From: Candidatus Poribacteria bacterium
GTDB taxonomy: Bacteria > Poribacteria > WGA-4E > WGA-3G
Direction: 5' to 3'
Length of the DNA: 64,000 nt
NCBI GenBank assembly: GCA_003635195.1
Contig: PYIY01000190.1
Location: forward strand, 8,919 to 72,918
Under the pieces are notes generated by a model. It saw nothing but the letters and a program-made list of their open reading frames with translations. It had not been told where the DNA came from and made no database searches. The stretch's first letter is position 1. Each line of letters begins with the position of its first letter. Positions 44,982 to 53,267 of the stretch are shown piece by piece. Made by a program: the position numbers and the translations under genes.

Positions 44982-45150
44982 GCCCCCTTGATAAAGGGAG
45001 ATAAAGGGGTGTTTTTGCTTGGGTGTTTTTGCTTGGGTGTTTCTGCGTATTCTGCGTATTGCTTGGTGTCTTTGATGGGGGTGTTTTTGCTTGGGTGTTT
45101 CTGCGTATTCTGCGTATTGCTTGGGTGTTTCTGCGTATTTCTGCGTATTT
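44982..45150 (+). repeat. composite repeat array (hairpin + GTGTTTTTGCTTGG / GTGTTTCTGCGTATTCTGCGTATTGCTTGG / CTGCGTATTT units); left inverted repeat of the island
   Basis: 45006-45066 is a perfect 61-nt reverse complement of 49067-49127. The unit order is partly permuted between the two arrays. Confidence 0.85.
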
Positions 45151-45461
45151 CTTGCGATCTGCATTCGCAACCGCACCAGACTACAGCAGCCTTCAAAATC
45201 CTGATTCAGACAGTGTAAATCTAAGTCCTCTTCCTATCTATAAAATTTCATAGCAACTTTCACAGCATCCACTATTAAAAACCGATCAAAACCCAGGCAC
45301 TGTATAGGTTTACAAATGATTTTACAACCTACCGCTTTTTGGATTTTGCTATGAAAACTGTGAAACGCTCGCCACTTCCTTTCTCGAATTTTTGTGCAAT
45401 ACAGTTGTATGCCTCCCCAACTTCTGCTAAAATAGTAAACAAAAGGAGTGCTAAACAGTCT

Positions 45462-45668
45462 ATGAAAACCACACAATCAAAAAACACAACCAACAAAAAA
45501 TCGAAACAACGCCTCACTTTCCCGGTCTACGATGAAGAGGACATCCTTAACTGGGATGCTGCTATAGTCACCCCTCCACCGCGTCCATCCGGCACAATAC
45601 GGGTTAGATTAATATACAAGGGACGCAGTAAACCAATGCCAGTTGGAAATTTTTGGGAAGAGGAATAG
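45462..45668 (+). CDS. hypothetical small basic protein (68 aa)
   Basis: ATG at 45462 preceded by AAAGGAG. MKTTQSKNTTNKKSKQRLTFPVYDEEDILNWD... The first ORF inside the island ends 24 nt before the next start. Confidence 0.4.
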   Translation: MKTTQSKNTTNKKSKQRLTFPVYDEEDILNWDAAIVTPPPRPSGTIRVRLIYKGRSKPMPVGNFWEEE

Positions 45669-45691
45669 GCATTTGGATCTTATCAAAAAAT

Positions 45692-47074
45692 ATGGAAACC
45701 ATTGATCCCAAACAGCGCATCGCGCAAGGCGAAAATACCATAACCGAGTTCAAAGAGAACTTCGATCAGGAAGTAATTGAGACCGCTGCTGCGTTTGCTA
45801 ATACCGATGGCGGCACGATTCTTATTGGCGTGTCTGACAAGCAAGAAATCAGAGGTATCACCATCGGCAAAGAGACACTAAGAGACGTGTCAAACAGGAT
45901 TTCGCAAGCGACTGAGCCGCGGGTGGTTCTGGAAATTGAATCAGTTGATATAGAAGAAAAATCAGTGTTGTTAATACATATCGCAGAATCTTCCATAAAA
46001 TCCGTCTCAGTTAAAGGCAGATGCTATAAGCGGGTGGGCAATAGCAACCGCGTCATGTCCCCACAAGAGATTTCCCAGATGCACCTCAACGCCACTGGAC
46101 AAACTTGGGATCAATTCTCAGTGACACGTGCTGGAATTGATGATATAGATGAGAAAAAAGTCGGATGGTATCTGACCCGTCGAGAAACAATCCGGAATGT
46201 GTCTAAACCGCAAGATATGAACATGGCAGCGTTTTTGAAGAACATCAATGGTATCAGCGATGATGGAACACCAACCCACGCGGGTCTTCTTTTCTTCAGT
46301 AAGCACCCCCAACGGAGATTCTTCTACAATGCACAATTACGAGTTGTCAGATTCAAAGGCACATCTGTCACCCATCCGGTCATTGATCGGCTTGATTGCG
46401 ACGAGACGCTCTGGGAAAACGTCGATACCGCCGAGGAATTTATAAGAAAAAACATCCGCCTTCTCAGTTTTCGGACCTCAAAGAGTTTCCAACGAGACGA
46501 TAAGTTTGAGTATCCGCTGAAGGCACTGCGAGAGGCGATTATCAACGCCTTGATTCACCGCAACTATCAAGAAACTGCGGATGTCCGAGTTTTTATATTT
46601 GATAACCGTTTTGAGGTTATTAGTCCCGGCACTTTTCCAGAAGGCGTTAGTCCAAACGAACCGACTCACAAACCGGTAAACCCTACTTTGAGTCAATTCA
46701 TGTTTGATGTCGGTTTCATTGAACGGTACGGTGCCGGCATCAGGATGATGCGCAGATTATGTGAGGAGTGGGGAAACAAAGCCCCGCGTTATGAATTTCA
46801 CCCGCTTGAGACCAAAATCATCTTTGATTCCCCAATTCAAGAGAGCACTTATGTTGAAATTAACGACATTTCAGAGCAGTTGAACGAGCGTCAAAAGAAC
46901 GCTTTTTTCTATGTGCAAAGACACGGACAAATTGCGACAAAGGAATATGTAGCGATCAACAATATCTCGCGCAAGATTGCCTATCAGGAACTAAAGGATA
47001 TGACAGATAAAGGGTTATTGTCCACGACAGGAAAAGGAAGAGGAAGCCGATACGTCCGAAAAGTAAGCGATTAG
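45692..47074 (+). CDS. Schlafen/AlbA_2 domain + HATPase_c_4-like + C-terminal wHTH protein (COG2865-type putative regulator)
   Basis: GENTITEFKENF...AAFANTDGGTILIGV is AlbA_2. ALREAIINALIHRNY...VISPG...ERYGAGI is HATPase_c_4-like. C-terminal HTH NERQKNAFFYVQRHGQIATKEY. Confidence 0.75.
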   Translation: METIDPKQRIAQGENTITEFKENFDQEVIETAAAFANTDGGTILIGVSDKQEIRGITIGKETLRDVSNRISQATEPRVVLEIESVDIEEKSVLLIHIAESSIKSVSVKGRCYKRVGNSNRVMSPQEISQMHLNATGQTWDQFSVTRAGIDDIDEKKVGWYLTRRETIRNVSKPQDMNMAAFLKNINGISDDGTPTHAGLLFFSKHPQRRFFYNAQLRVVRFKGTSVTHPVIDRLDCDETLWENVDTAEEFIRKNIRLLSFRTSKSFQRDDKFEYPLKALREAIINALIHRNYQETADVRVFIFDNRFEVISPGTFPEGVSPNEPTHKPVNPTLSQFMFDVGFIERYGAGIRMMRRLCEEWGNKAPRYEFHPLETKIIFDSPIQESTYVEINDISEQLNERQKNAFFYVQRHGQIATKEYVAINNISRKIAYQELKDMTDKGLLSTTGKGRGSRYVRKVSD

Positions 47075-47110
47075 GTAAGCGATTAGGTAAGCGATTAAGT
47101 GAACGATTAG
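47063..47110 (+). repeat. four tandem 12-nt repeats (GTAAGCGATTAG)
   Basis: gtaagcgattag gtaagcgattag gtaagcgattaa gtgaacgattag spans the stop codon of 45692..47074 and ends 3 nt before the AAGGAG RBS of the 47130 gene. Confidence 0.85.
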
Positions 47111-47129
47111 CGCAAGGAGTAACACCCAC

Positions 47130-48476
47130 ATGCCAAGGGGAAAAGGCGAAGGCATCACCAAAATAGCCGTGAAAGGTTTCAAGTCGATAGCGGAGGAACG
47201 CGCAATTGACATCCATCCGCTGACGCTCCTTGCTGGCGCGAACAGTTCTGGGAAATCCAGCATCATGGAACCACTCTTGCTGCTAAAACAGACGCTGGAG
47301 GCACCGTATGATCCAGGACCGCTGTTGATTGATGGACCAAACGTTCAATTTACTGAGGCAGCACAATTTTTGTCCACATTACCCGACGGGAAAAGAGCAG
47401 ATCGCTTTCAACTTCAAATTGAAAGTCGGGAACATGGCTATTTTGACTCAGTCCAGACAATTTTCAAAAAAGGAGACAGGGGCATTGAAATTGTCAAAAT
47501 GACTGCAGAAAAAAGATCCGCTTTCAATCCTCCATTATTTTCCCCTGAACGTGCTACCTTATCACCCGATATGCCAAATGTGAGGCGTTCCAAATGCATC
47601 TTAGAATCATTACCTGACGACTATCGCTCTAAAGGCTCACACATTCCGACTATAATGACAGATCACCTTAACAGAGAAATTACCAAAAGTATTCATCTTC
47701 CCGGCTTACGAGGCAACCCGGAACGCAGTTACAAGTTGACAGGAACTGGTTCTCGGTATCCCGGCACGTTTGAAAATTACGTTGCGACTCTCATTCACGA
47801 GTGGCAGGAAAGAACAGATAAACCCTTGGAAACATTAGGTAACCCTTTTGATAGGCATAAACTGGGAGAAGAATTTCAAAATTATCAAAATTATAGTAAC
47901 CCTGCTGCTGTTCTCGCCGAAGTTCTTAATATACTTAGTCTGACAGGACACGTCAGGGCTAAAAAAATTGGTGACACCCGCATTGAGCTTCAAGTCGGTC
48001 GTCTTCTTCACCATCGAAACAATGAAACAGATATGGTCAACATCACCGATGTAGGGCTTGGTGTGTCTCAAGTTTTGCCTGTTTTAGTTGCCCTGATTGT
48101 TGCACGCCCGTCACAATTGGTCTATCTTGAGCAGCCCGAGCTGCACCTCCATCCCCGCGCCCAAGTTGCATTGGCACAAGTCATAGCAGACGCGGCAAAA
48201 CGGGGGGTACGTGTTGTTGCCGAAACCCACAGTTCACTGCTACTCTTGGGAATCCAAACACTTGTTGCAGAAGGAGACCTCTCACCGGAATTGGTGAAGC
48301 TGCACTGGTTCACACGCCGTGAAGATGGGGTAACTGAAGTTGCCAGTGCTGACTTAGATGAGGCAGGAGCTTACGGAGAGTGGCCCGAAGATTTTGATGA
48401 TGTAGACCTCAAAACACACAGTCGTTATCTCAATGCTGTAGATAGGCTTCGATTTGGCAAAGAGGAGGCATCTTGA
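47130..48476 (+). CDS. ABC-type (AAA_15/AAA_21-like, OLD/RecF-like) ATPase
   Basis: Walker A GANSSGKS (47232-47255), Walker B QLVYLEQPELHLHP (48114-48155), H-loop VVAETHSSLLL. The C-terminal WFTRREDG...GEWPEDF tail resembles DUF3696-type ATPases. Confidence 0.8.
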   Translation: MPRGKGEGITKIAVKGFKSIAEERAIDIHPLTLLAGANSSGKSSIMEPLLLLKQTLEAPYDPGPLLIDGPNVQFTEAAQFLSTLPDGKRADRFQLQIESREHGYFDSVQTIFKKGDRGIEIVKMTAEKRSAFNPPLFSPERATLSPDMPNVRRSKCILESLPDDYRSKGSHIPTIMTDHLNREITKSIHLPGLRGNPERSYKLTGTGSRYPGTFENYVATLIHEWQERTDKPLETLGNPFDRHKLGEEFQNYQNYSNPAAVLAEVLNILSLTGHVRAKKIGDTRIELQVGRLLHHRNNETDMVNITDVGLGVSQVLPVLVALIVARPSQLVYLEQPELHLHPRAQVALAQVIADAAKRGVRVVAETHSSLLLLGIQTLVAEGDLSPELVKLHWFTRREDGVTEVASADLDEAGAYGEWPEDFDDVDLKTHSRYLNAVDRLRFGKEEAS

Positions 48477-49006
48477 GAGCAAGAGATTCAAAACGGTTGG
48501 TGATTGATGCTGATGTTGCCCGAGCCTCCGGTAGTGAAACAACAACCCATCCACGCGCCGAACATTGTCGTGATTTTCTAAACGCAGTTTTGTCGCTAAG
48601 TCACCGCATCGTGATGACAGAGAAAATCAACAACGAATGGAAAAATCACCAATCCCGATTTGCCCGCCGGTGGCGGGTGTCAATGGATGCACGCAAGAGA
48701 ATAAATCGCATTGATCCACCAGAAGATGAAGAACTTCAAGCCAAGGTCACAACTACAACAAATGACGCAGATGAAATTGAAGCACTGCGAAAAGATTTCC
48801 ATCTCCTCCAAGCCGCACTCGTAACAGATCAGACCATCATTTCGCTTGATGAAACTATCCGAGGGCTTTTCAAACAAGCATCGCAACAGGTCGGTGAAAT
48901 CCGAAACATTATCTGGGTAAATCCAGATAGGACAACAGAAGAACAACCCATCACTTGGCTCCAAAACGGCGCATCCCCTGAACCCCATCGTCAACTTTCC
49001 GCTTGA
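48473..49006 (+). CDS. PIN-like putative nuclease (177 aa)
   Basis: The TTG start overlaps the ATPase stop by 4 nt. LVIDADVA (D12/D14), E50, KDFHLLQAAL (D108) and IISLDE (D126) are spaced like the four acidic residues of PIN domains. This is my inference from pattern only. Confidence 0.5.
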   Translation: MRARDSKRLVIDADVARASGSETTTHPRAEHCRDFLNAVLSLSHRIVMTEKINNEWKNHQSRFARRWRVSMDARKRINRIDPPEDEELQAKVTTTTNDADEIEALRKDFHLLQAALVTDQTIISLDETIRGLFKQASQQVGEIRNIIWVNPDRTTEEQPITWLQNGASPEPHRQLSA

Positions 49007-49040
49007 TACAATATTCGTTATGAGTATCGCGAGCGACAAG

Positions 49041-49152
49041 AAATCCGCAGAAATCCGCAGAAACACCCAAGCAATACGCAGAATACGCAGAAACACCCAA
49101 GCAAAAACACCCAAGCAAAAACACCCCTATCAAAGACACCAAGCAAAAACAC
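49041..49152 (-). repeat. right inverted repeat array of the island
   Basis: aaatccgcagaaatccgcagaaacacccaagcaatacgcagaatacgcag...aagcaaaaacac. Its reverse complement matches 45006-45150, including a perfect 61-nt stretch. Confidence 0.85.
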
Positions 49153-50346: not shown

Positions 50347-50982
50347 GTGATACCGTCAATCCAAAGCATCACACAGACAGACACAAATTACCCAAAAAGG
50401 TTAAAAAAATATCTAAAAGCAGACACTCCAGAAACGATCTGGACCCGCGGGAATATCAACTTGTTACCGGGACAAAACACCGGTTTAAACGGAGATCTTT
50501 GGGCACTCTTCTGCTCCAGCAAATGTCCCGGGGAAATTATTTTGAAGGCGCACAACTTGGCACAGACATTCAAAGAAAGAGAAATCCCAACGATCGGAGG
50601 CTATCACTCGCCAATTGAAAAAGAATGTCTACGCGTCTTACTACGCGGTGTACAACCGGTCCTCTTATGTCCGGCACGAAGCATTGAAAATATGCGGCTA
50701 AAACCGGCATGGAAAGATGCCCTATCCCAAGAACGACTATTAATCTTATCTACTTTTGGGAGTCAGCATCGGCGATCAACAGCGACGTTGGCGAACCAAC
50801 GCAACGCCTTCGTTGCAGCACTTGCAGACAAAATCTGCATCGCGCATGCTGCTGAAGGCAGCAAAACTTTAGAATTCGCACAAGTGATAGTAGCGTGGGG
50901 TAAACCTGTTTTCACCTTTGAGACACCAGCAAACGATGCCCTCTTTCAACTTGGGGCACAACCCCTACTCGGAGGAACATAA
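50347..50982 (+). CDS. divergent DprA/Smf-like Rossmann (SLOG) domain protein
   Basis: YPKRLKKYLKADTPETIWTRGN parallels DprA YP..L..i.dPP..L...G. The later pattern IGGYHSPIEKE...LLCPARS...LILSTF...NQRNAFVAALAD...AAEGSKT follows the DprA Rossmann core. There is no SAM-like N-domain or C-terminal WH. Confidence 0.55.
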   Translation: MIPSIQSITQTDTNYPKRLKKYLKADTPETIWTRGNINLLPGQNTGLNGDLWALFCSSKCPGEIILKAHNLAQTFKEREIPTIGGYHSPIEKECLRVLLRGVQPVLLCPARSIENMRLKPAWKDALSQERLLILSTFGSQHRRSTATLANQRNAFVAALADKICIAHAAEGSKTLEFAQVIVAWGKPVFTFETPANDALFQLGAQPLLGGT

Positions 50983-51899: not shown

Positions 51900-51971
51900 G
51901 GGATATGTGTATTTTTTCGTAATTTCTATATATATTGGAATGTATATGCATAGTTTGTATACATATACACC
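51900..51971 (+). repeat. diverged third copy of the 72-nt Fic-flanking repeat
   Basis: gggatatgtgtattttttcgtaatttctatatatattggaatgtatatgcatagtttgtatacatatacacc aligns without gaps to 53124-53195, with 15 mismatches in 72 by my count. Confidence 0.7.
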
Positions 51972-52014
51972 TCAATACGTGATTTCCACTTCTTCCCGTG
52001 GTTTTGCCAGAAGT

Positions 52015-53100
52015 TTATTCTGATAATAATTCCATAAGGTCTCTATTGATGTAGTAGTACTCCCGTCCTATTTTCACTCGCTCAAGCAAACCGAGTGCTA
52101 CGATTTCGTTCAAGTACCTTGTAGCTGTAATGCGACTACACGCCAGTTCTCTCTCAACGATGCTGATTTTGCAGTAGGGCCACTTGAAAAGTAGATCGAC
52201 AAACCCTTCGCGCTCAACGGCTTTCGCTCTGCCGCTCGCTTTTATCATGAAGTTATTGATAAGACGATTAATTGCCTCTATTTTTCCTGCGGTGTCTCGC
52301 GAGGTTTGTTCCACTGCTTCCAAGATGTAGAGAATCCACTGATGCCAACTTCCGTTTTCCGTGACTTCACGAAGATAGCGATAATACGCATCCCGATTTT
52401 GGATAAGAAAACGACTGAGGTAAAGTATTGGGACATCAAGTAGTCCTTGATATACCAGATAGAGAATGTTGAGTATACGTCCTGTTCGTCCATTGCCATC
52501 CCTGAACGGGTGTATTGCCTCAAACTGGTAGTGCATTACGGCCATTTTGACAAGCGGTTCAAATTCATCAGTCTTATCATTAATGAATCGCTCAAGGTTC
52601 GTTAACAATCTGATAAGGTTTCCGTATCCGGTTGGAGGTCTGTAAATAAGCTGCTGTGTTGCTCGGTTTTCAATCACTACCGGACCGCTACGCACTTTCA
52701 TTTTTTCGTCAAAGATACGTGAGCAGATCTGCTCAAAGAGTTGTATGTCCAGAGTTGAACCTTCTCGGATGCTCCTGACCCCTTCCCACAATGCCTCGCG
52801 GTAGTGTAGTACTTCTTTGGTGTTGGAGTCAACCTGGTTTCTGTCAGATGCTATCGCTCGGTACAGATCATCGTTCGTCGTAACGATGTTTTCGATTTCC
52901 GAACTCCTGCGTGCCTCCTGAAGCGGTAGTGTATTTATCAGAACCTCTTCGTTTGGCAACGTCTTCACCAAGGCATTTGCCTTAGAAAGTTCGGTCATCG
53001 CCGATATGCATGCTTTGAGGATGGCACGCGATTCGAGATCTGTAGCCGGAGGAAGTTCAGGGAGATCGTTCCATGGAAGATTTGGATTGAATTGAGGCAT
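52015..53100 (-). CDS. Fic family protein (Fic_N + Fic core + C-terminal wHTH)
   Basis: The canonical Fic motif HPFRDGNGRTGR is present (AIHPFRDGNGRTGRILN). I prefer the ATG at 53100 (MPQFNPNLPW) because the track TTG start at 53145 lies inside the repeat. Confidence 0.9.
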   Translation of the reverse strand: MPQFNPNLPWNDLPELPPATDLESRAILKACISAMTELSKANALVKTLPNEEVLINTLPLQEARRSSEIENIVTTNDDLYRAIASDRNQVDSNTKEVLHYREALWEGVRSIREGSTLDIQLFEQICSRIFDEKMKVRSGPVVIENRATQQLIYRPPTGYGNLIRLLTNLERFINDKTDEFEPLVKMAVMHYQFEAIHPFRDGNGRTGRILNILYLVYQGLLDVPILYLSRFLIQNRDAYYRYLREVTENGSWHQWILYILEAVEQTSRDTAGKIEAINRLINNFMIKASGRAKAVEREGFVDLLFKWPYCKISIVERELACSRITATRYLNEIVALGLLERVKIGREYYYINRDLMELLSE

Positions 53101-53123
53101 TGTTGTCACCAACCTTGATAATT

Positions 53124-53267
53124 GGACATGTATACTTTTTCGCAATTTCTATGCATATCGACATCAATATGTATAATTTGTATACATATACATCCGGACA
53201 TGTATACTTTTTCGCAATTTCTATACATATCGACATCAATATGTATAATTTGTATACATATACATCC
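53124..53267 (+). repeat. two tandem 72-nt AT-rich repeats
   Basis: 53124-53195 and 53196-53267 differ at one base (ctatGcat vs ctatAcat). They contain the palindromic GTATAC/TGTATACA cores. Confidence 0.9.

Follow-up and report, generated by a model that had tools for sequence, protein, structure and literature searches.

Are an ATP-binding cassette (ABC)-type ATPase gene and the small open reading frame (ORF) that overlaps its end a two-gene defence system, and, if so, does the pair belong to a system that already has a name? The question is raised by a stretch of 64,000 nucleotides from a Candidatus Poribacteria bacterium (NCBI GenBank assembly GCA_003635195.1, contig PYIY01000190.1, positions 8,919 to 72,918 of the forward strand), here called the window, in which a first-pass annotation had proposed that positions 47130-49006 encode an ATPase sensor and a PIN-like nuclease effector forming an unclassified, mobile immune module. 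Candidatus Poribacteria is a phylum of sponge symbionts. On balance, it is probable that the two genes make up a self-contained module of an ATPase and a nuclease, of the type represented by HEC-03 and by the NsnB-NsnC core of Menshen; a gating mechanism for it is proposed below. The genes and their translation signals are as follows.

47130-48476, + strand: ABC-type ATPase of the NsnB / HEC-03 (DUF3696) clade; 448-aa ORF with an ATG start
48473-49006, + strand: stand-alone PIN-like protein, predicted nuclease effector; 177-aa ORF with a TTG start
47114-47119, + strand: Shine-Dalgarno-like AAGGAG, read from the sequence, 10 nt 5' of the ATPase ATG
48462-48468, + strand: Shine-Dalgarno GAGGAGG, within the 3' end of the ATPase gene, 4 nt before the PIN TTG

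Both ORFs lie where the first-pass annotation had placed them, and the overlap of 4 nt is seen in the sequence, the TGA stop of the ATPase gene and the TTG start of the PIN gene sharing the letters TTGA (context cTTGA). In one relative (locus L001), an ATG stands where the window PIN gene has its TTG. Promoter and terminator scans returned no more sites than were found in shuffled sequence, and nothing matched in an Rfam scan of the window from 44 to 54 kb. The gap between the stop of the upstream AlbA_2 gene, described further below, and the ribosome-binding site of the ATPase gene is filled by four tandem copies of a 12-nt unit (GTAAGCGATTAG) at 47058-47110.

The pairing extends far beyond this genome. 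A search from the ATPase side across 185,579 species genomes gave at least 556 loci, a lower bound, and the best 80 of these were examined. They comprise 46 Poribacteria records and two metagenome-assembled genomes with the same synteny, followed by cyanobacteria, Acidobacteriota, Chloroflexi and Methanothrix/Methanosarcinales archaea. The small gene is located directly downstream of the ATPase gene and on the same strand in 78 of the 80, which bears out the tight coupling and co-occurrence expected of the two genes; one of the two exceptions is a contig end, and the other (L042) has lost the PIN gene. At a further locus (L053), the PIN gene is retained only as a truncated copy. Where the PIN start could be placed (48 loci), it falls between -11 and +5 nt from the ATPase stop, with -4 being the commonest spacing. 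Approached from the other side, by way of small-protein homologues ranging from 76% down to ~40% identity, the ATPase gene is directly upstream in all seven distinct contexts (12 loci). The pairing thus spans 5 bacterial phyla and archaea and is obligate. Because homologues of the small protein fill 2146 clusters at 50% identity and the ATPase is found at so many genome loci, both ORFs are, judged by homology, real genes.

No third conserved gene accompanies the pair: clustering of the neighbours at 87 loci yielded, across phyla, only shadow ORFs of the ATPase and PIN genes themselves. Two candidates for a third component were considered and set aside. The redoxin gene downstream of the pair in Acidobacteriota reflects lineage-specific synteny, and the DprA-like and AlbA_2 genes seen in the window vary even within Poribacteria.

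The members of the small-protein family are nearly all stand-alone proteins of ~170-190 aa. Nothing significant was found for the small protein in Pfam, NCBIfam, PHROGs or PADLOC, or in a profile search of PDB sequences. The Pfam family PIN_12 gives E=0.061 with the window protein and weak matches in 12 of 43 family members (best 0.003), all under the gathering score, and PIN_8, PIN and PIN-TPR-GreABC match sporadically and weakly among the 43. An AlphaFold2 model built from 43 sequences (pLDDT 93.6, pTM 0.89) consists of a single domain in which five strands (8-11, 45-48, 77-79, 121-123 and 147-149) alternate with helices, and it has the three-layer alpha/beta/alpha fold and central parallel sheet of the PIN superfamily. 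When the model was compared with the PDB using Foldseek, the ten best matches and most of the top 50 were PIN-like nucleases, including VapC (7vwo, the best match), HARP RNase P (7e8j and 7og5), Nob1 (2lcq), PAE2754 and VapBC2, with probabilities of 0.87-1.0 and TM values of 0.37-0.64. A search of viral folds in BFVD gave no meaningful match. The PIN fold suggested from the spacing of acidic residues is in this way upheld by the model, together with the conserved acidic tetrad encoded at the following positions, which was identified from conservation.

48506-48508, + strand: codon of D12
48635-48637, + strand: codon of E55
48794-48796, + strand: codon of D108
48848-48850, + strand: codon of D126

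D12, E55 and D108 are each present in 46 of 46 locus-derived proteins and D126 in 44 of 46; in 144 cluster representatives, the four positions are 92-100% conserved. The residues singled out by the first-pass annotation are therefore only partly the right ones: D12, D108 and D126 are conserved, E50 (8/46) and D14 (17/46) are not, and the conserved glutamate is E55. D119 is conserved as well (45/46). Further conserved residues are M71 and several that are extra relative to VapC, namely C32, W56, W67, W148-x-N150-P151 and W162. In the model, D12 closes strand 1 and D126 comes directly behind strand 4, and the helices that follow strands 2 and 3 carry E55 and D108, respectively; these are the canonical secondary-structure positions of a PIN active site. 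The small protein is therefore modelled as a divergent PIN domain, and one that is probably active.

The ATPase is easier to place. Its Pfam matches are AAA_21 (2.4e-25) and AAA_15 (5.5e-21), and Pfam detects no nuclease domain in its 448 residues, in agreement with its earlier description as an OLD/ABC-type AAA_15/21 ATPase that lacks a nuclease of its own. DUF3696 is matched at its C-terminus below threshold (E=0.0022, 18.6 bits, with a cut-off of 22 bits). Family-library searches, including Pfam and PADLOC, gave no match to Toprim, DUF4435 or HNH in either protein of the pair. Among PADLOC models, the best match is NsnB (1.7e-52, model positions 2-334 of 345), followed by the HEC-03 ATPase (2.6e-38, C-terminal part) and PDC-M55A (2.3e-34), and the scores against AriA (6e-24), GajA (~1e-9) and Old are far lower than those against NsnB and HEC-03. 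There is no solved structure for any close homologue. The recognizable elements are listed below, with counts over the 80 loci.

47235-47258, + strand: Walker A, G36-A-N-S-S-G-K42-S43, invariant in the ATPase alignment (GANSSGKS in 75/80)
47370-47669, + strand: hypervariable insert, residues 81-180, taken as ABC Insert-1 by position; candidate sensing surface
48048-48071, + strand: ABC signature in a GxG variant, D307-VGLGVSQ314 (DVGxGxSQ in 76/80)
48117-48155, + strand: Walker B, LVYL-E334-Q335-PELHLHP, with EQ replacing the canonical DE dyad (EQ in 79/80)
48222-48233, + strand: H-loop, E365-T-H367-S, invariant in the ATPase alignment (ETHS in 78/80)
48282-48395, + strand: C-terminal DUF3696-like tail (KLHWF...DG.TE...LDEAGA.G.WPEDF), strongly conserved; PIN docking site as predicted from AlphaFold 3 models of NsnB-NsnC

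The Walker A, Walker B and H-loop motifs quoted in the first-pass annotation are all present, with the correction that the Walker A lysine is K42 and not K41. Given the E-Q dyad in its Walker B motif, the ATPase would probably be a slow hydrolyser. The core of the protein and its C-terminal tail are strongly conserved, unlike residues 81-180, for which mean pairwise identity is 0.23-0.58 within Poribacteria and 0.14-0.37 outside them, compared to 0.8-0.94 for the core. Judged from this pattern, the insert looks like a diversifying recognition surface. A separate in-frame insertion of 26 residues (~235-260, encoded at 47835-47912) is common only to the two closest Poribacteria relatives (L013 and L014), and its DNA includes a stretch like the 12-nt tandem unit that precedes the ATPase gene.

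Within Poribacteria, the pair occurs at one chromosomal locus in ~50 species, with 73-93% identity. The syntenic order is Der, glyoxylate reductase, a permease in some cases, variable genes, the ATPase-PIN pair, PhyH(-), in some cases a DprA-like gene, PhyH, in some cases SoFic, and an aminotransferase. A search anchored on PhyH(-) found 80 Poribacteria loci, 50 of which have the pair and 28 of which do not. In at least 10 of these 28, both flanks are intact and PhyH(-) abuts the permease; these are clean empty sites, which makes the pair an accessory module whose hotspot is fixed. The proposal of a mobile immune module stands insofar as it concerns accessory gain and loss in Poribacteria. It does not stand as regards a defence-island context outside the phylum, where the neighbours are housekeeping genes.

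The combination of an ATPase with a PIN partner had been put forward as an unnamed one. This does not hold, since both HEC-03, a tested ATPase-PIN pair, and Menshen, in which NsnB and NsnC pair an ATPase with a PIN-like domain, have been described. HEC-03 (Hma-embedded candidate 3), whose cloned version comes from Pseudomonas cichorii ATCC 10857, pairs a DUF3696 ABC ATPase with a PIN protein encoded by an overlapping gene; it requires both genes for phage defence in E. coli and is toxic upon induction (Payne et al. 2024 preprint, bioRxiv 10.1101/2024.01.29.577857). The A and B labels used for HEC-03 in PADLOC are swapped relative to the preprint. HEC-03 matches the window pair in layout: its ATPase is ~450 aa long and has a DUF3696 tail, and the small PIN gene that follows and overlaps it encodes 157 aa as cloned and 169-177 aa in the plasmid relatives examined, compared to 177 aa in the window. 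BLASTP aligns the HEC-03 ATPase (WP_025259138.1) with the window ATPase over ~350 residues at 28% identity (E=8e-23), and both carry G.NSSGKS, DVGFGVSQ, EQPE.HLHP and E(S/T)HS, the Walker B motif of HEC-03 being MEQPEIHLHP. Against the HEC-03 ATPase model, however, the window ATPase scores 130 bits, over its C-terminal part only, whereas 765 bits are reached by a true member. The NsnB model does not separate the two, giving 176.9 bits for the true HEC-03 ATPase and 177.3 bits for the window ATPase.

The PIN proteins are further apart. Those of the window and of HEC-03 align at E=0.13 with BLASTP and at E=0.0077 when a profile is compared to a sequence. A profile alignment of the N-terminal part puts the first aspartate and the glutamate in register; longer or global alignments did not place the C-terminal acidic residues sensibly. 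A true HEC-03 PIN protein matches its PADLOC profile hidden Markov model (HMM), PDLC04147, at 9.4e-86, and PADLOC needs this match to call the system. Because the window PIN protein fails the HEC-03 PIN model, the window pair counts as a lineage of its own rather than as a HEC-03 that has been detected. The proposed check against PADLOC accordingly has a divided outcome, in that the ATPase matches the models of two named systems and the PIN protein matches none.

The window family also differs from HEC-03 in its hosts, which include other phyla and archaea, and in not being found on plasmids. At HEC-03-type plasmid loci, the PIN gene is followed by an RNA ligase gene in 5/6 cases and by an HNH endonuclease gene in 1/6, whereas the window family has no third gene. 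The ligase, annotated as 'RNA ligase family protein', is encoded directly after the DUF3696 ATPase and PIN genes (at ~2500-3230 of L095-L099) in plasmids of Aeromonas, Azotobacter, Tistrella and Rhodococcus, and the HNH endonuclease gene follows the pair in an Acinetobacter plasmid. These neighbours are a hint that RNA is what the PIN protein of HEC-03 acts on, and that a repair or counter-activity travels along.

Menshen (NsnABC) reportedly goes back to Millman et al. 2022. Its ATPase, NsnB, has an EN dyad in Walker B, a GxG signature and DUF3696 (Li et al. 2025, PMC12065111), and the window ATPase shares the non-canonical Walker B (E-N in the one and E-Q in the other), the signature and the tail. 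In AlphaFold 3 models, the N-terminal PIN-like domain of NsnC is clamped between two NsnB DUF3696 tails, and all 35 NsnC N-terminal PIN-like families are reported to lack catalytic residues and to be inactive docking or recognition domains (PMC12065111). The partner of the window ATPase is PIN-like as well, and here the resemblance ends. NsnC has a C-terminal nuclease or toxin effector domain, whereas the window PIN protein is a single domain with no match to NsnC in PADLOC, and its D-E-D-D residues, reported missing from the PIN-like domains of NsnC, are conserved. In Menshen, the upstream gene encodes NsnA (ParB-DUF262 + ParBDB), whereas that of the window encodes an AlbA_2/HATPase_c_4 protein, and in the seven distinct pair contexts examined (12 loci) the precomputed Pfam annotation contains neither DUF262 nor NsnA. 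By sequence, the window pair is thus a new branch of an already known pairing, with the architecture of HEC-03 and an NsnB-like ATPase.

More distant systems share parts of this design. PARIS (AriA/AriB), Septu (PtuA/PtuB) and Gabija (GajA/GajB) likewise combine an AAA_15/21-type ABC ATPase with a nuclease effector, but the effectors are Toprim (AriB, GajA) or HNH (PtuB) proteins rather than PIN, and the ATPases lack DUF3696 and are much more distant from that of the window. VapBC type II toxin-antitoxin operons, whose VapC provides the best structural match, likewise encode a small PIN nuclease in a two-gene operon. The partner there, however, is the small DNA-binding protein VapB, whereas the window partner is a 448-aa ABC ATPase and the PIN protein is encoded second.

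The reading with the best support is that the pair defends against invading elements by means of a PIN nuclease gated by the ATPase. By analogy with HEC-03, Menshen, PARIS and Septu, we infer a physical complex of the two proteins, a trigger, an RNA target and a defence phenotype, and propose the following mechanism. The ABC ATPase would oligomerise and hold the small PIN nuclease inactive by way of its C-terminal DUF3696 tail, and the hypervariable insert (residues 81-180) would recognise a signal of infection or of another invading element. Nucleotide binding at the Walker B E-Q site would then switch the complex and thereby release or activate the nuclease. With D12/E55/D108/D126, the nuclease would bind metal and cut nucleic acid, most likely RNA, which is favoured as the substrate because of the structural matches to VapC, HARP and Nob1. 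Cleavage would halt translation in the infected cell.

The module also draws support from the hotspot itself, which in some genomes houses SoFic, a Schlafen-GHKL gene and a HigB/HigA-like pair. Several observations weigh against such a module. Searches of 72,556 plasmids and 50,697 phage records turned up no member of the PIN family. The neighbours outside Poribacteria are housekeeping genes (redoxins, rpsB/tsf and Hsp70-like proteins), with a type I restriction system at only ~1/29 loci. The E-values of the Foldseek matches are modest (best 5e-3, none <1e-3). PDLC04147 is matched neither by the window protein (E<=0.1) nor by eight diverse members of its family (E<=1), and hhalign against a profile of eight HEC-03-type PIN proteins gave E=2.4e-4 and a probability of 43% over the N-terminal 56 columns only. 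The E-Q dyad could also mean that the ATPase does not cycle at all.

Part of this evidence would suit a toxin-antitoxin-like or stress module, in which a VapC-like PIN toxin is kept in check by an ATPase acting as antitoxin or as a gauge of ATP levels and growth is arrested at low nucleotides or under stress. The fold of the small protein, the tight cassette of two overlapping genes, the housekeeping and redox neighbours outside Poribacteria and the toxicity of induced HEC-03 are all compatible with it, as is the natural E-Q dyad, which fits binding over turnover. However, HEC-03, the closest tested relative, requires both genes for phage defence, and the ATPase carries an insert that resembles a diversifying recognition surface. 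The two readings also overlap, as many toxin-antitoxin modules also defend. We regard the toxin-antitoxin-like or stress reading as unlikely, if the most credible of the alternatives. A broader conjecture, doubtful and next in rank, is that the family represents a free-standing active PIN module, from which Menshen later derived its inactive docking domain. The E-Q ATPase would then be a non-hydrolysing nucleotide gauge that frees an RNase when ATP falls, and the pair an ATP-gated growth switch that slow-growing symbionts, cyanobacteria and methanogens keep on their chromosomes, with phage defence as only one of its uses.

Should the small protein instead be a catalytically silent adaptor, as the NsnC PIN-like domains are reported to be, the real effector would lie elsewhere or be absent. 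The sub-threshold sequence matches to PIN families leave room for this, as does the inactivity of all 35 NsnC families; yet conservation across phyla reaches 96-100% at the canonical D-E-D-D positions, unlike in NsnC, and there is neither a C-terminal effector domain nor a conserved third gene, so that an adaptor seems quite improbable. Still less probable is a housekeeping role in RNA processing or quality control, for example as an ATP-regulated maturation nuclease inherited vertically in Poribacteria. The constancy of the locus in ~50 Poribacteria species, the structural matches to HARP RNase P and Nob1 and the rpsB/tsf neighbours in Nostocales could be cited for such a role, but it fits poorly with the fact that at least 10 Poribacteria genomes have a clean empty site and that the PIN gene is lost or decayed in others (L042 and L053). 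The occurrence of the family among the species genomes searched is also patchy, and the ~50% identity between bacterial and archaeal ATPases points to horizontal transfer. The least likely reading, to which we give hardly any weight, is a decayed Menshen stripped of NsnA and of the effector half of NsnC. Although NsnB is the best PADLOC match of the ATPase and the partner shares its PIN-like character with the NsnC N-terminus, the two-gene form without NsnA is found in 92/92 pair-bearing loci examined. The pair is, moreover, kept across phyla under clear constraint with its catalytic residues intact, which would not persist in a remnant.

The pair stands between two described systems, with the architecture of HEC-03, an ATPase like NsnB and a PIN domain that looks active. 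With only two proteins, it offers a simple model in which to study the control of a PIN partner by DUF3696 ATPases and the origin of the inactive PIN domains of Menshen. The small-protein family is large and distributed across bacteria and archaea, and it has no Pfam, NCBIfam, PHROG or PADLOC model. PADLOC-DB v2 lacks a model for the PIN partner, and the pair is therefore probably not called; it is likely to be overlooked when the defences of sponge symbionts, cyanobacteria and methanogens are surveyed. The Poribacteria hotspot, which is occupied or empty depending on the species, provides a natural experiment for dating gain and loss.

Other genes of defence-related type are located around the pair at the hotspot in the window.

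45653-47074, + strand: Schlafen/AlbA_2 + HATPase_c_4 (GHKL-like) + winged-helix protein, adjoining the ATPase gene upstream
50347-50982, + strand: stand-alone DprA-like protein (DNA_processg_A 2.5e-12; PADLOC PsyrA 1.5e-18, ShosA weak)
52015-53145, - strand: SoFic-type Fic protein (PADLOC SoFic 3.2e-110)

The Schlafen-GHKL gene had been taken as support for an immune module, a role that its distribution does not sustain, as it is found upstream of the pair in 17/50 Poribacteria loci and in none outside the phylum. Its product matches a PADLOC pAgo model at 3.5e-27 and for this reason resembles the SLFN-GHKL part of the recently described SLFN-pAgo proteins, without the Argonaute. The DprA-like gene, present in 18/50 Poribacteria loci and adjoining a PhyH-family gene, may likewise belong to the accessory or defence-related genes of the hotspot. 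SoFic is present in only 9/50 of the related loci, which suggests that this known defence gene was inserted separately. It is bracketed by 72-nt repeats at 51901-51972, 53124-53195 and 53196-53267.

The inverted repeats that flank the pair (45005-45154 and 49037-49146) exist as reported and are 97-100% complementary, but they are not a sign of mobility. They are composites built on a 23-mer, TTGCTTGGGTGTTTCTGCGTATT, the core of which is found at 104 or more places across Poribacteria genomes; chromosomes carry many copies each, and one has more than 20. The core was not found at other occupied or empty sites of the hotspot, and the 23-mer has no match in Rfam. As a dispersed, multi-copy genomic repeat, the flanking sequences were rejected as the ends of a mobile element or island; by sequence, the 23-mer looks repetitive extragenic palindrome (REP)-like or miniature inverted-repeat transposable element (MITE)-like.

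Two further observations concern the hotspot in related genomes. In the closest relative (L012, positions 466-1091), a Gp49 (HigB-like) + HTH_37 toxin-antitoxin pair is located upstream of AlbA_2 at the same hotspot. In the Poribacteria chromosome OZ242029.1, which contributes two loci (L029 and L232), Der, glyoxylate reductase, the permease and PhyH(-) form an empty site, while AlbA_2, the ATPase, the PIN gene, the DprA-like gene, PhyH, SoFic and the aminotransferase lie together at a distance of ~220 kb, which makes the hotspot a rearrangement breakpoint as well.

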